Assembly: GCA_964426075.1 (NCBI GenBank)
Contig: CAYROP010000002.1
Span: forward strand, 1 to 47,345
From: an uncultured Gammaproteobacteria bacterium
Lineage (GTDB): Bacteria; Patescibacteriota; Microgenomatia; CAYQLK01
DNA length: 47,345 nt
Direction: 5' to 3'
The notes beneath the pieces are model-generated. The model saw nothing but the letters and a program-made list of their open reading frames with translations, did not search any database and had not been told where the DNA came from. A program made the position numbers and the translations under genes. Below are positions 3,151 to 38,331 of this stretch, one piece after another (positions within the stretch are counted from its first letter, which is position 1; each line of letters opens with the position of its first letter).

Positions 3151-4146
3151 CTACTTATATCCATCGGGATTTTTTTTAGTCCAATTCCACTGATCAACAA
3201 TCGAATCTCTAACAGTTTTTTTAGGAACCCAGCCAAGCAATGTCTCAGCCTTCTTATTTGAAGCGTACAATACTTCTGGATCCCCAGGTCGAGGTTCAAC
3301 AACACTGTAGTTTAATTTTTTCTCTGCAACATCTTCAGCTAGCTTGAATATCTCCAAGCAACTAGTTGCCTTACCAGTTGATAAATTAATTGGAGTAAAA
3401 CCTTTAATATTTTTTTCCAAAGCTTTTATGTGTCCAAGTGCTAAATCATATATATCAATATAATCTCTTTCCTGTGAACCATCCTCAGTCTTAAAGTTAT
3501 CTCCAAACAACAACACTTTTTCTCTTCTACCAACCAATGTTTGCATAACCAAAGGAAGCAAATTAGTTGATCTTGATGGATCCTCACCTAACTCTCCTGT
3601 AGGATAAGCACCAACCGCATTAAAATATCTCAGAGCCACAGTCGAAACACCTTTACTAACATACTCACTTGCCAATTCTTCCATTTGAAGTTTTGATTGT
3701 CCGTAAGCATTCATAGGATTTTTTGGAGACTCTTCAGTTATTGGCACCTCTCCATTTCCATATACCGCTGCAGTAGATGAAAAAATCAATTGTCTAACAC
3801 CAAACTCTGCCATTAATTCCAAAATGGTTTTTAAGCCTCCAACATTATTATCAAAGTATTTATCAGGCTCTCGATCAGCCTCACCTACAGATTTATAAGA
3901 AGCAAAATGAATAACCCCATCAGGTTTAAATTTTTCAAAAACTGATCTCATACCTTCCTTATCACGAACATCAAGTTTTTCAAAACCAAAATCTTTGCCA
4001 GTTACTTTCTTAACCCTATCCAATGCCTGCATATAACCTCGCTCCAAGGTATCAACCACACAAACTTCATAACCATGATTCAACAACTCCACCAATGTAA
4101 TTGATCCAATATAACCAGCTCCACCAGTTACTAGTATTTTCTTCAT
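3151..4146 (-). CDS. galE: UDP-glucose 4-epimerase
   Basis: GGAGYIGS Rossmann motif and YGQSK catalytic YxxxK motif. 331 aa with SDR-extended architecture. Confidence 0.9.
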   Translation of the reverse strand: MKKILVTGGAGYIGSITLVELLNHGYEVCVVDTLERGYMQALDRVKKVTGKDFGFEKLDVRDKEGMRSVFEKFKPDGVIHFASYKSVGEADREPDKYFDNNVGGLKTILELMAEFGVRQLIFSSTAAVYGNGEVPITEESPKNPMNAYGQSKLQMEELASEYVSKGVSTVALRYFNAVGAYPTGELGEDPSRSTNLLPLVMQTLVGRREKVLLFGDNFKTEDGSQERDYIDIYDLALGHIKALEKNIKGFTPINLSTGKATSCLEIFKLAEDVAEKKLNYSVVEPRPGDPEVLYASNKKAETLLGWVPKKTVRDSIVDQWNWTKKNPDGYK

Positions 4147-7344: not shown

Positions 7345-7464
7345 TCAGCAATAATCACAAACCTTGAAGCTTAATCAGATAGTCTGTTAAAATCACCTTT
7401 GAATTTCAATGAAAAAAATCTCATTGAATTACAAAATCTGGTTTTGAACAAGCTATGCTTGTCA

Positions 7465-7520
7465 AAACTTTCCTTTTAGGAAAAGGGATACTAAGGAAAA
7501 ATCTTGGTGTCTCCTTTAAC
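7465..7520 (+). promoter_or_regulatory. Conserved two-hairpin tRNA 5' leader motif, copy 1
   Basis: The sequence aaaactttccttttaggaaaagggatactaaggaaaaatcttggtgtctcctttaac ends 3 nt before tRNA-Phe. It is related to copies at 14841 and 19903. Confidence 0.4.
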
Positions 7521-7523
7521 AAA

Positions 7524-7596
7524 GCCGAGGTAGCAAAGTTGGTCAATGCACGCGTCTGAAAAACGCGCCATGTCAGTTCGATTCTGACCCTCGGCA
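7524..7596 (+). tRNA. tRNA-Phe (anticodon GAA), no encoded CCA
   Basis: Acceptor gccgagg/cctcggc, anticodon arm cgcgt-ctGAAaa-acgcg, T arm gtcag-ttcgatt-ctgac, discriminator a. The D stem is weak (3 bp). Confidence 0.85.
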
Positions 7597-7612
7597 CTTT
7601 AAAAAAAATGGT

Positions 7613-7670
7613 GAGGGAAGAACGAAAATCGAGTTTACGAGATTTTCCTTCTGACCCTCGGAACTTTTTT
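7613..7670 (+). terminator. Interrupted hairpin plus T6 downstream of tRNA-Phe; its 3' arm repeats the tRNA 3' end
   Basis: Pairs gaggg/ccctc, aag/ctt and gaaaatc/gattttc, then T6 at 7665-7670. It contains ctgaccctcgg, identical to tRNA positions 7584-7594. Confidence 0.45.
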
Positions 7671-14794: not shown

Positions 14795-14840
14795 CATGGC
14801 AATTTCACCCTTAATTTGCTAAAATTTCACCGCTACTTAT

Positions 14841-14890
14841 AAGGATATGAAAAGAGGATTACTAAGGAGAAACCTTGGTGTTTCCTTAGA
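14841..14890 (+). promoter_or_regulatory. Conserved tRNA 5' leader motif, copy 2
   Basis: The sequence aaggatatgaaaagaggattactaaggagaaaccttggtgtttccttaga ends 5 nt before tRNA-Leu(GAG). Confidence 0.4.
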
Positions 14891-14895
14891 GTTAT

Positions 14896-14979
14896 GGGCG
14901 AGTGGCGAAATTGGTAGACGCGCAGGCTTGAGGGGCTTGTGGAGTCAAATCCTTGGAGGTTCGAGTCCTCTCTCGCCCA
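14896..14979 (+). tRNA. tRNA-Leu (anticodon GAG)
   Basis: Anticodon arm caggc-ttGAGgg-gcttg. The scaffold is identical to those of the other tRNA-Leu genes. Confidence 0.9.
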
Positions 14980-15058
14980 CAAAACATTACCAACACTAAT
15001 TTGAGCACAATTTCTAAAAAATTTAGGGTAAACTTAAAATATTAACGAAAAACTTTTA

Positions 15059-19795: not shown

Positions 19796-19902
19796 TCGTT
19801 TCTTATTTTCACCTCTATTGCCATCGACTCGCTATTTCAATAAAATACCCAAGCTAAAAAAAATATTTTCTTATTATGGTTTTTGGACAGGCTCTGCCTG
19901 AC

Positions 19903-19960
19903 AAAAACTTTCCTATTCTAGGAAAGGGAATATTAAGGGGAAACCTTGGTTGCCCCTTAA
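19903..19960 (+). promoter_or_regulatory. Conserved two-hairpin tRNA 5' leader motif, copy 3
   Basis: The sequence aaaaactttcctattctaggaaagggaatattaaggggaaaccttggttgccccttaa ends 8 nt before tRNA-Val(GAC). Confidence 0.4.
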
Positions 19961-19968
19961 CGTATTAA

Positions 19969-20045
19969 GGGCTTGTAGCTCAGTTGGTTAGAGCGTTACA
20001 TTGACATTGTAAAGGTCAGAGGTTCGAGTCCTCTCAGGCCCACCA
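19969..20045 (+). tRNA. tRNA-Val (anticodon GAC), CCA encoded
   Basis: Acceptor gggcttg/caggccc, anticodon arm ttaca-ttGACat-tgtaa, T arm agagg-ttcgagt-cctct, then a-cca. Confidence 0.9.
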
Positions 20046-36905: not shown

Positions 36906-37307
36906 ATGAAATCCAAAACTGACCCGCGTCACAAACATCGCATTAAACTCGTCAGAATGCTATTTGCTTACGAATTTGACCACGACCAAGCAGACTTTTC
37001 CGAAATCCTTCCAATTACCAAATCAATTACAGATATTGACCTAGAAATTGCCAAAAACGCTCCTGCTTGGCCAATCGAACAAATTTCCAAAATAGACTTA
37101 GCAGTTTTAAGACTTGCTGTTTATGAATTACTTATTGATAAAAGCCAACCGCAAAAAGTTGTTATCGACGAAGCAATTGAACTTGGAAAAGAATTCGGCA
37201 ATGAACACACCAGCTCATTTATTAACGGTGTTTTAGGATCGGTCGTCAAAGAAATTCCACCTACTGAACCAAAGCAAGAATCAGAAAAAACTAAAGAAGC
37301 AGAATAA
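36906..37307 (+). CDS. nusB: Transcription antitermination factor NusB
   Basis: 133 aa. RHKHRIKLVRMLFAYEF and VVIDEAIELGKEFG...SFINGVLG are typical of NusB. Confidence 0.8.
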   Translation: MKSKTDPRHKHRIKLVRMLFAYEFDHDQADFSEILPITKSITDIDLEIAKNAPAWPIEQISKIDLAVLRLAVYELLIDKSQPQKVVIDEAIELGKEFGNEHTSSFINGVLGSVVKEIPPTEPKQESEKTKEAE

Positions 37308-37596: not shown

Positions 37597-38331
37597 GTGG
37601 CCAAAAAATCCAATACAGAGTTGCTTTTTGATAACTTCCCAATATCCGAAGCCGAAAAAGCTTTAAGTGTAAAATTCAAAAATCCAAAACTCTTAGCCAA
37701 CGCCTTCGTACACAGATCATACTTAAACGAAGTCTCAGCTCCAGATACAGTTTTTACACACGACAACGAAAGGCTAGAATTTCTTGGCGATAGTGTTTTA
37801 TCGTTGATTGTCTCCGAGCATTTATATTTAACCTATCCTGACCAAAAAGAGGGAATACTCACTCACTACCGTTCAGTTCTAGTCAGAACTGAAAGTTTAG
37901 CTGAAATGACAACACAACTTGACCTTGCCAAGTTTTTATTCCTATCCAAAGGTGAACACGAAAGAGGGGGCACTAAAACTAAATCTATCCTCGCCAATAC
38001 CTATGAAGCGGTTCTCGGAGCAATTTTTCTTGACCTAGGCATTCTTACTGCTAAAAAATTCGTCTTCCGCACACTACTTAAAGGCCCATCAAGCCATCTT
38101 GAAAGTTCGCTCCTGGATCCTAAAAGCAGACTGCAAGAAATTGTTCAAAAACGCTTTAAAAGTTCTCCTTTTTATAAAACAGTTTCTGAAAGTGGCCCTG
38201 ATCATGCAAAAACATTTACCGTTGAGGTTCTAATTAATCGCGTCGTCTCTGGCACCGGCAAGGGCAACAGCAAACAAGAAGCTCAACAGGACGCCGCCAA
38301 GGTAGCACTTAATAATTTAATTGAAAAATAA
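37597..38331 (+). CDS. rnc: Ribonuclease III
   Basis: ERLEFLGDSVL signature and a C-terminal dsRBD (GPDHAKTFTVEV...GKGNSKQEAQQDAA). GTG start. Confidence 0.9.
   Translation: MAKKSNTELLFDNFPISEAEKALSVKFKNPKLLANAFVHRSYLNEVSAPDTVFTHDNERLEFLGDSVLSLIVSEHLYLTYPDQKEGILTHYRSVLVRTESLAEMTTQLDLAKFLFLSKGEHERGGTKTKSILANTYEAVLGAIFLDLGILTAKKFVFRTLLKGPSSHLESSLLDPKSRLQEIVQKRFKSSPFYKTVSESGPDHAKTFTVEVLINRVVSGTGKGNSKQEAQQDAAKVALNNLIEK

Follow-up and report, generated by a model that had tools for sequence, protein, structure and literature searches.

A dispersed family of structured, about 100-nt cassettes in front of tRNA, ribosomal protein and other genes of Candidatus Curtissbacteria

The DNA analysed here (the window) is a stretch of 47,345 nt, contig C2 of genome G000 (826 kb, 37% GC, 93% complete), in which a hairpin-bearing motif stands directly upstream of three tRNA genes. 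This motif belongs to a family of modular cassettes, about 100 nt long and dispersed in small-genome Curtissbacteria (Microgenomates, candidate phyla radiation (CPR)). The cassette has a conserved secondary structure with covarying hairpins, is associated with a -10 box, lies next to gene starts, comes and goes between orthologous sites, replaces Shine-Dalgarno (SD) junctions within operons and is constrained in sequence in the one orthologous copy compared. Hence, we regard it as a new family of structured RNA or dispersed cassette, presumably with a role in gene expression. We tentatively favour the reading that it is a portable expression module maintained by selection, in which a promoter is joined to hairpins that protect the RNA and to a structured site for ribosome loading, a mechanism which we infer from the features described below.

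Within the window, seven tRNA genes are detected by ARAGORN and Rfam. An earlier sequence-only reading of this DNA had placed the motif upstream of tRNA-Phe, tRNA-Leu(GAG) and tRNA-Val(GAC), and indeed it ends 5, 6 and 8 nt 5' of the respective genes (starting at 7524, 14896 and 19969), while being missing 5' of the other four tRNAs according to both an upstream scan and profile searches. All three copies described there are present, but the genome holds two more, located upstream of tRNA-Ser(UGA) on contig C7 and tRNA-Pro(CGG) on contig C19. Scanning of the 110 nt 5' of all 34 tRNAs found in the genome, as well as nhmmer searches with a three-copy profile and later with a 34-copy profile, gave a total of exactly five copies, each directly 5' of a tRNA gene, and no copy elsewhere in the genome. 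These five are 70-85% alike. The remaining 29 of the 34 tRNAs lack the motif and display plain TAAAAT/TATAAT boxes 20-35 nt upstream instead.

The element is longer than first described. In the orientation of the downstream gene, a full copy consists, from 5' to 3', of a -10-like hexamer of the TAAAAT type, a hairpin H0, a hairpin HA, a purine-rich tract, a hairpin HB and a tail often reading AGUAA. Copies 1 and 3 (those of tRNA-Phe and tRNA-Val(GAC), copy 2 being that of tRNA-Leu(GAG)) were initially thought to begin with hairpin A; HA is present in both, but the longer H0 (about 13 bp) stands 5' of it at 7441-7468 and 19880-19907. Across the family, H0 is a hairpin of 13-14 bp (e.g., AAAUUUGAA-U-CUGGC uuu GCCAG-UUCAAAUUU), and HA (UUUCCU/AGGAAG) is a weak hairpin and the weakest part of the cassette. 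The purine-rich tract AAGGAAGAGGAAUA is SD-like and conserved in sequence. It is followed by HB, a long hairpin of 12-13 bp whose lower stem YYAAGGRG:CYCCUURR contains an invariant AAGG:CCUU core and resembles an SD/anti-SD duplex, whereas its middle part reads AAA/UKK and its apex ACC-loop-GGU. What had been taken for a loop of hairpin B (AAAYCUUGGU) is actually the upper portion of this single long hairpin. In relatives the apex reads ACC-UU-GGU, ACC-GUA-GGU or ACC-GUUA-GGU, or carries a 23-nt insert, and since it differs in this way among copies collected without bias, HB has to be one long hairpin and alternative pairing is not general. One such alternative, a 'switch' in which the mid segment pairs with the 5' arm of HB (ATAYYAAGG:CCUUGGUKK), was 89% paired in the first copy set and seemed to covary in one variant (L174); it was rejected as a general feature because the scan pattern had fixed this segment and because unbiased copies with ACC-GUA-GGU or a longer apex are unable to form it. 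A likeness of HB to 16S rRNA helix 45 plus the anti-SD tail is only partial, with the matching bases varying among copies, and is treated as chance. In total, about 45 nt of the family are conserved in sequence as well as in structure, across genomes of 31-47% GC. Truncated copies comprising purine tract and HB also occur, both within existing leaders and between cistrons.

Four full genome copies fold far more stably than shuffled sequences (z of -4.2 to -5.8), whereas the truncated tRNA-Leu(GAG) copy does not (z of -1.4). Covariation was assessed in two alignments. In a MAFFT alignment of 34 copies, 18 of 30 pairs are changed on both sides, namely 12/13 in H0, 5/12 in HB and 1/5 in HA, with 90% of the cells being paired in H0 (both sub-helices), 90% in HB and 71% in HA. 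The model-fitted alignment of 42 distinct copies gives two-sided changes in 13/13 pairs of H0 (93.8% of cells paired) and 8/12 pairs of HB (90.5%), i.e., 21 of 25 pairs and 92% of all cells for both hairpins together. This second alignment leans to its own structure, and the MAFFT alignment, which is not structure-fitted, serves as the independent check. When partners are slid by 1-3 columns, only 30-60% remain paired, and none of 500 shuffles reaches the observed values. The compensatory changes previously claimed for hairpin B are therefore real, as seen from the 42 distinct copies: two outer pairs occur as CG:21/UA:20 and UA:34/CG:7, and an inner one as GC:24/AU:15. The cassette is a structured RNA with conserved secondary structure. 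Likewise, the statement that no described element is alike was borne out, as no Rfam 15 family was matched at its gathering threshold in the window and 14 loci, where only tRNA and tmRNA (transfer-messenger RNA) passed. A permissive Rfam search with one copy gave the ylbH leader as best match, with 21 bits compared to a threshold of 50, and nothing relevant was found in the literature regarding a described CPR leader motif.

Scanning of a genome collection with a loose pattern yielded 119 mostly chance matches and one true match in a related metagenome-assembled genome (L067). This copy scores 100 bits, is 92% identical to the tRNA-Pro copy of G000 and lies upstream of tRNA-Thr(GGU), the ortholog of which in G000 has no motif. 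A metagenome scan afforded 43 loci, about 29 of them distinct; as its pattern fixed part of HB, loci were instead fetched via neighbouring proteins and not via the motif. Altogether, the family comprises 42 distinct copies in Curtissbacteria-type sequences, the named homologs of GAPDH and S4 being all from Candidatus Curtissbacteria, while no copy was found in viral contigs. Regarding gene context, ten copies belong to tRNAs, two to tmRNA, twelve to ribosomal proteins (S4, S7, S8, S12, L2, L14, L16 and L36), three to rpoA and six to ftsL, in addition to dnaG, nrdR and others. Among the metagenome copies, some precede tRNA-Val(GAC) and tmRNA (both of which passed Rfam), others the start codons of rpsD, rpsG, rpsL, rpsH, rplB and rplP, as read from N-termini and operon order, and still others rpoA, dnaG, a DHH-like gene or ftsL. 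The genes preceded by the cassette are mostly highly expressed ones: tRNAs, tmRNA, ribosomal proteins and RNA polymerase alpha. In the orthologous pair L135/L168, a GC-rich hairpin followed by TTT stands immediately 3' of the element, with the next gene being 130 nt away and equipped with its own TATAAT, and one orphan copy in L182 is located between convergent genes. One nrdR region with a cassette has its own promoter and NrdR boxes. In L127 (363-470) and L165 (384-480), a TTGACA-N17/18-TAACTT/TAAGCT promoter lies 3' of the cassette and ahead of nrdR, overlapped by two NrdR-box-like palindromes (e.g., CCACAATATATTGTGT).

The 5' end of the cassette has the appearance of an ordinary promoter. 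In the 17 nt preceding H0, 24 of 43 copies contain TA[ATC]AAT, compared to 1.9% of random 17-nt windows from the same loci, and most copies without an exact TA[ATC]AAT carry near-matches. In most TA[ATC]AAT copies (judged by eye), the 8th nucleotide after the box is a G at the base of the inner H0 stem, and a G 7-8 nt after a -10 box is where a start site would be expected. The 5' module thus qualifies as a sigma-70-type promoter with its -10 hexamer in place and a purine downstream, the start site itself being predicted. The sequence-only reading had seen no -35/-10 pair in copies 1 and 3; this stands for the -35 hexamer, none of which is evident upstream of H0, but not for the -10 element, as -10-like hexamers exist for both (TATTAT at 19872-19877 and TAAAAT at 7388-7393). 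Copy 2 likewise has a TAAAAT upstream (14820-14825), and since copies 1 and 2 lie downstream of such ancestral boxes, the cassette should be transcribed there. Other copies, located between S11/S4, S4/rpoA, S12/S7, S17/L14 and rsmH/ftsL, are inside operons. H0 is not an intrinsic terminator, as the AAAUUU behind its inner stem has its U's paired with the 5' A-tract, and the full stem is succeeded by UCC, GUCC or AUCC.

At the other end, the distance from HB to the start codon or the mature RNA 5' end is 4-12 nt in 34 copies (5-10 nt from the RNase P site in the genome copies), the sole exceptions being three rpoA copies at 22-27 nt which retain their own GGAGGTGA / AAGGAGGTGA. Empty orthologous sites of rplN, rpsH and rpmJ exhibit GGAGG, AGGAG or a stop-start overlap; in the filled sites this former junction has been shifted away by 100-150 nt, leaving the gene without an SD. 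As in-operon copies replace the SD or stop-start junction, expression of the gene that follows must be supported by the cassette itself. Since rplN, rpsH and rpmJ are essential, their translation must tolerate the cassette and is probably aided by it. A leader-peptide mini-ORF (open reading frame; MVSP-stop, UUG-GUG-UCY-CCU-UAR) acting by termination-reinitiation was considered as well. It is present in many copies, but was rejected as not conserved: its stop becomes UGG in the CC/GG class, its frame enters S7 and S8 out of frame, and the GGUUUGCC class has no start. In L183 (2364-2492), a called ORF of 42 aa, running from the old rplN start through H0 into the HB loop of the inserted cassette, is probably spurious.

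The cassette is not a fixed property of the genes it precedes. In five syntenic relatives with the same gene order as the window, none has a copy before tRNA-Phe or tRNA-Leu(GAG), while four of the five have one before tRNA-Leu(UAG), where G000 has none. A copy at rsmH/ftsL is present in two of four ftsL loci. Similarly, of four S4-anchored operons, L182 carries copies at rpoA and rpmJ plus the orphan, L184 at rpsH and L183 at rplN, with L185 carrying none. Hence, presence is labile at ten or more orthologous sites. Selection was examined by comparing the tRNA-Val(GAC) copy with its ortholog in L159. Here, the upstream ORF differs at 164 of 526 positions (31%, the upper end of flank divergence) and the spacer at 19 of 84 (23%), whereas no differences were found in H0 (0/28) and in purine tract plus HB (0/34); HA (loop) shows 4/19 and the 8-nt tail 3/8 differences. 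Had the 62 conserved bases changed as fast as the spacer, they should differ at about 14 positions, and as no difference is seen, the tRNA-Val(GAC) copy is under purifying selection and not decaying.

In the window, all three copies and their tRNAs are on the plus strand. At tRNA-Phe, the -10 box TAAAAT (7388-7393) of the ancestral promoter, recognized from relatives with the same gene order, is kept upstream of the cassette; these relatives read gctaaaat followed by a leader of about 30 nt directly before the tRNA, with no cassette. Copy 1 itself starts with a -10-like box (TACAAAAT, 7430-7437) directly 5' of H0, in the position at which TA[ATC]AAT occurs in the family. It continues with H0 (GTTTTGAACAAGC tat GCTTGTCAAAAC, 7441-7468) and HA (CTTTCC/GGAAAG) plus purine-rich tract (AGGAAAAGGGATA; together 7468-7490), both hairpins being assigned from RNA folds and the tract from its conserved sequence, and with HB (CTAAGGA ... 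TCCTTTAA, 7491-7519), assigned from fold and family covariation. tRNA-Phe(GAA) follows 5 nt after HB (7524-7597; ARAGORN/Rfam). An extra hairpin with 15-nt arms (TTTGAATTTCAATGA/TCATTGAATTACAAA) is found at 7398-7435, between the ancestral promoter and H0, so that the tRNA-Phe leader would carry four hairpins. Additionally, the last 19 nt of tRNA-Phe (TTCTGACCCTCGGCACTTT, 7582-7600) recur with 95% identity 67 nt downstream (7649-7667), which could be the scar of an integrase-type insertion.

At tRNA-Leu(GAG), the -10 box TAAAAT (14820-14825) is conserved in relatives, which read gcTAAAATcgctcgggctactaacaaatac|GGGCGAG at this site. Copy 2 (14840-14892) resides inside the leader of this tRNA and represents about 50 extra nt compared to the orthologous site of L169, L172, L174 and L175. 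It is truncated, consisting of purine tract, HB (14862-14889) and an AGT tail without H0 and HA, and scores 49.7 bits with model R2; tRNA-Leu(GAG) begins 6 nt after HB (14896-14980; ARAGORN). Copy 3 has a -10-like box TATTAT (19872-19877), as read from the sequence, with the G 8 nt downstream (19885) as its likely start site. From RNA folding, H0 (TTTTTGGACAGGC tct GCCTGACAAAAA) was located at 19880-19907, HA (CTTTCCTA ttc TAGGAAAG) at 19908-19926, and the purine tract GGAATA together with HB (TTAAGGGGAAAC cttg GTTGCCCCTTAA) at 19927-19960, with tRNA-Val(GAC) following after 8 nt (19969-20045; ARAGORN/Rfam). TATTAAGGG is present twice in this region, at the start of the HB 5' arm (19931-19939) and at the junction of leader and tRNA-Val(GAC) (19963-19971), and due to this duplication the HB 3' arm could pair with the tRNA-Val 5' end instead. 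Such a duplication was not seen in copies before other tRNAs, and the idea that the HB 3' arm is related to the 5' strand of the tRNA acceptor was discarded, as only tRNA-Val copies show this.

Regarding the machinery with which such a leader might interact, genes for RNase J, RNase Y, RNase III, Rho and NusB were found in the genome by tblastn, those of RNase III and NusB being located in the window at about 37642-38319 and 37074-37268, respectively. RNase E, Hfq, CsrA and RnpA were undetected in the same tblastn searches, for which query sequences were supplied by the author; in case of RnpA, this may stem only from divergence or from the missing 7% of the genome. Also 16S rRNA is missing from the assembly of G000.

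As an expression module, the cassette would bring or keep a promoter, and RNA begun 7-8 nt after the -10 box would have the inner 8-9 bp of H0 flush at its 5' end. This 5'-terminal hairpin, together with SD-like sites, would protect the transcript from decay of the RNase J/RNase Y type, and the prerequisites of a stabilizer of the STAB-SD type, i.e., an SD-like tract, a 5' hairpin and genes for RNase J and RNase Y, are observed. A role at the RNA level in stability or processing is plausible. Within operons, HB and the purine tract would substitute for the lost SD or stop-start coupling by hairpin-bridged, SD-independent ribosome loading, in which HB may either keep an AU-rich start region open or bring the SD-like tract near the AUG on the other side of the hairpin. 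For tRNA and tmRNA genes, the cassette would simply be a leader removed by RNase P. Although we favour this expression module, we consider it somewhat short of evenly balanced, as a number of points weigh against it. Start sites, processing sites and half-lives are all inferred. With a start 7-8 nt after the box, the five outer pairs of H0 would have no transcribed 5' strand, although they covary, pointing to a role of H0 in read-through RNA or in single-stranded DNA which the module does not explain. Moreover, the SD-like sequences in HB are paired, and the purine tract is effectively 9-16 nt from the AUG, which is at the long end for an SD. Ribosome loading or stabilization would be pointless for tRNAs, yet tRNAs account for all five genome copies, and the equal spacing of 4-12 nt before tRNAs and ORFs is left unexplained, as is the invariant AAGG:CCUU core. 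Furthermore, the excess of G:U over A:C is modest (16 vs. 10 in H0, 11 vs. 5 in HB), so that this comparison does not prove strand-specific RNA pairing and is too weak to fix the strand. Finally, the copy set is partly biased, as a portion of HB was prescribed by the metagenome pattern and two of the anchor genes were the author's choice.

Several other explanations have to be weighed against the expression module. A regulatory leader, whose purine tract and AAGG:CCUU core bind a trans-acting factor and thereby co-ordinate the synthesis of tRNA, tmRNA, ribosomal proteins and RNA polymerase alpha with growth, would account for the roughly 27 of 42 copies standing before genes of the translation and transcription machinery, for sequence conservation beyond structure alone across the whole GC range and for the complete conservation of H0 and purine tract plus HB in one orthologous copy. 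Conceivable partners are the anti-SD tail of the 30S subunit, RNA-binding proteins (ribosomal or not), RNA polymerase (cf. the put RNA of phage HK022) and small molecules. However, the variable presence at orthologous sites in close relatives is hard to square with a fixed regulon, S4-anchored operons carry copies before different genes or none at all, and copies also precede ftsL, dnaG and nrdR or lie between convergent genes. Moreover, no partner candidate was found (with CsrA and Hfq undetected by tblastn), and most copies have no adjoining terminator or SD-sequestering expression platform, which makes this explanation rather unlikely. A more specific version, in which the SD-like tracts and the SD:anti-SD-like helix bind free 30S subunits or another core translation factor and the output of tRNA, tmRNA, ribosomal proteins and RNA polymerase alpha is fed back on ribosome availability, is improbable; if true, a ribosome-sensing leader RNA, spread by a portable module, would take over the part of classical growth-rate control or stringent control in the reduced genomes of CPR bacteria. 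We likewise give little credit to a trans-acting small RNA gene of about 100-125 nt, freed by RNase P (tRNA/tmRNA copies), another nuclease or its own terminator. The L135/L168 element with its own -10 box, terminal GC-rich hairpin plus TTT and a separately promoted next gene, as well as the L182 copy between convergent genes and the conserved single-stranded tracts, would suit a small RNA. On the other hand, most copies lack a terminator and abut a start codon, so that the small RNA would either remain joined to the mRNA or have to be released by a cut in the ribosome-binding region of the latter. Truncated in-operon copies have no promoter, copy number and position differ among relatives, and conserved target complementarity was not found.

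Selfish, non-autonomous mobile DNA resembling miniature inverted-repeat or palindrome-associated transposable elements (MITEs or PATEs), with hairpins serving transposition in single-stranded DNA and persistence owed to an outward promoter that leaves the downstream gene unblocked, is improbable as well. It would fit the variable presence at ten orthologous sites, the 92% identity between loci of different genomes (tRNA-Pro of G000 and tRNA-Thr of L067), the modular build with truncated copies, and the covariation of outer H0 pairs that are probably outside the RNA made from the cassette's own promoter. A Y1 transposase gene (Y1_Tnp, PF01797) is present in one related locus only, L179 of the dcw region (3392-4096), where ftsL has no cassette. 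Against mobility, comparison of filled with empty sites and repeat searches revealed neither terminal inverted repeats (only internal hairpin arms) nor a consistent target-site duplication or a conserved target, as would be seen with a MITE or Correia-type transposon derivative. Nor does the cassette resemble an IS200/IS605-derived PATE or repetitive extragenic palindrome (REP), as H0 and HB differ in sequence, length and loop, contrary to the two ends of such a derivative, and no conserved flanking tetranucleotide is present. In addition, the orientation always agrees with that of the downstream gene, whose start is always 4-12 nt beyond the end of the cassette, strong purifying selection acts on one orthologous copy, only five copies of 70-85% likeness exist in the genome, arguing against a recent burst, and viral contigs hold none. 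That the core of purine tract and HB is a non-canonical promoter in double-stranded DNA, starting transcription at or just before the gene and giving leaderless mRNAs and near-mature tRNAs, had been suggested in similar form in the sequence-only reading. Its short, bounded distance to gene starts, most of them without SD, and the motif GAATAYT, a weak -10 look-alike, would agree with this. Nevertheless, HB covaries up to its outermost pair, which requires its two arms to be part of the same strand. In register 6-8 nt before start codons or tRNA 5' ends, hexamers having A in position 2 and T in position 6 are missing, and the spacing spans a range of 8 nt, while a leaderless promoter keeps it strictly. 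An ordinary -10 box stands upstream, copy 2 is downstream of a conserved ordinary promoter, and the rpoA copies are followed by a normal SD leader. The leaderless-promoter idea was therefore rejected on grounds of covariation and variable spacing, and we rate it as very unlikely. Least probable of all, to the point of being scarcely tenable, is the original view of a tRNA-specific 5' leader signal for RNase recognition or processing of pre-tRNAs. All five genome copies do lie 5' of tRNAs, at 5-10 nt from the RNase P site. However, only 10 of the 42 distinct copies precede tRNAs and 30 precede other genes, the same element being found before tmRNA, at least eight ribosomal protein genes, rpoA, ftsL and dnaG and in orphan and terminator-followed positions. 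Furthermore, 29 of the 34 tRNAs found in the genome do without it, and orthologs of tRNA-Phe, tRNA-Leu(GAG), tRNA-Leu(UAG) and tRNA-Thr in relatives either lack or gain it. The copies belong to a dispersed family and, with members before protein-coding genes, do not form a tRNA leader class, so that the tRNA-specific view fails by the condition which the sequence-only reading had set for it.

Compared to known systems, the cassette behaves most like small dispersed, co-transcribed and promoter-bearing repeats such as Correia or BOX. Correia elements (CREE/NEMIS) of Neisseria, pneumococcal BOX and RUP, and ERIC are dispersed intergenic elements of about 100-150 nt, and repeats of the Correia/BOX type alter expression or stability of the adjacent gene (PMC2649163, PMC2229807, PMC3184786). 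Common to these elements and the cassette are co-transcription with neighbours, stable hairpins, possible promoter elements, variable presence and possible modularity (BOX A/B/C). In contrast, the cassette has no sequence similarity to Correia-type elements and no terminal inverted repeats or TA duplication. It is also strictly co-oriented, ends 4-12 nt before the gene start and has few copies per genome (five here), and it stands before tRNA/tmRNA genes and in ribosomal protein operons, where it replaces SD junctions. Another resemblance is to MIRU, reportedly described by Supply et al. in 1997 (Mol Microbiol) as mycobacterial tandem repeats with small ORFs overlapping the flanking stop and start codons. 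Both are oriented repeats in short operon spacers and compatible with translation of the downstream cistron, but the cassette has hairpins and a -10 box, and its mini-ORF (MVSP*) is not conserved. The split ribosome-binding sites of phage T4 genes 25 and 38 are said (Nivinskas et al., 1999, J Mol Biol) to contain a hairpin between an SD-like tract and the start codon, and in the cassette, too, a stable hairpin could bring both to working distance. The T4 sites, however, are single phage cases, whereas the cassette, whose function is putative, also precedes non-coding RNA genes. Antitermination RNAs such as HK022 put and the boxB-boxA-boxC leaders of rrn operons are promoter-proximal, and the cassette resembles them in having two hairpins and a conserved single strand right after a promoter and before highly expressed stable-RNA and ribosomal operons, with NusB encoded in the genome. 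Unlike these leaders, the family has no boxA consensus, and its copies recur from one cistron to the next. CUCCUUUAACAAA is read in copy 1 alone, in its tail, a partial likeness to boxA with bases varying among copies which is treated as chance. In bacteria with RNase J/Y, 5'-terminal stem-loops and untranslated SD-like sequences (STAB-SD, as in cry3A of Bacillus thuringiensis) block 5'-3' decay (PMC4113751; PMC3997798). The cassette shares with them an SD-like leader sequence that is not at a translation start, a hairpin at the predicted 5' end and a host with RNase J and RNase Y. STAB-SD and 5' stem-loops, however, are single-gene features, whereas the cassette is a dispersed, conserved family whose strongest SD-like sequence is paired in HB and whose stabilizing effect is putative.

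Besides the cassette, other structured leaders occupy the same sites in relatives (L169 13164-13298; L133 2385-2465 and 7239-7377; L172 2295-2447). These include a long hairpin after GGAAGAGAAAATAACGAAG before tRNA-Leu(UAG), hairpins before rplP and secY that resemble H0 but continue into other 3' modules, and a different insert of about 75 nt before tRNA-Phe, and suggest a wider modular family. Just 5' of the tRNA-Thr copy in L067 (4720-4750), CTCGAGAAAAAACCTTGGTTTTGTCTCGA forms an HB-like hairpin with the same apex and an unrelated stem.

The CPR make up a large share of bacterial diversity and, to our knowledge, almost nothing is known of how transcription starts, RNA is stabilized and translation starts in these organisms. 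Here, a covarying element outside Rfam marks promoters and 5' ends of the most highly expressed genes in one CPR lineage. Inside operons for essential ribosomal proteins it can take the place of the SD junction, and the genes that it precedes change within short evolutionary times. With a covariance model and a defined sequence at hand, it offers a handle for the annotation of Curtissbacteria and for 5'-end analysis in metatranscriptomes, as well as for the study of SD-independent initiation and RNA stabilizers, and it may possibly serve as a compact, portable expression part.

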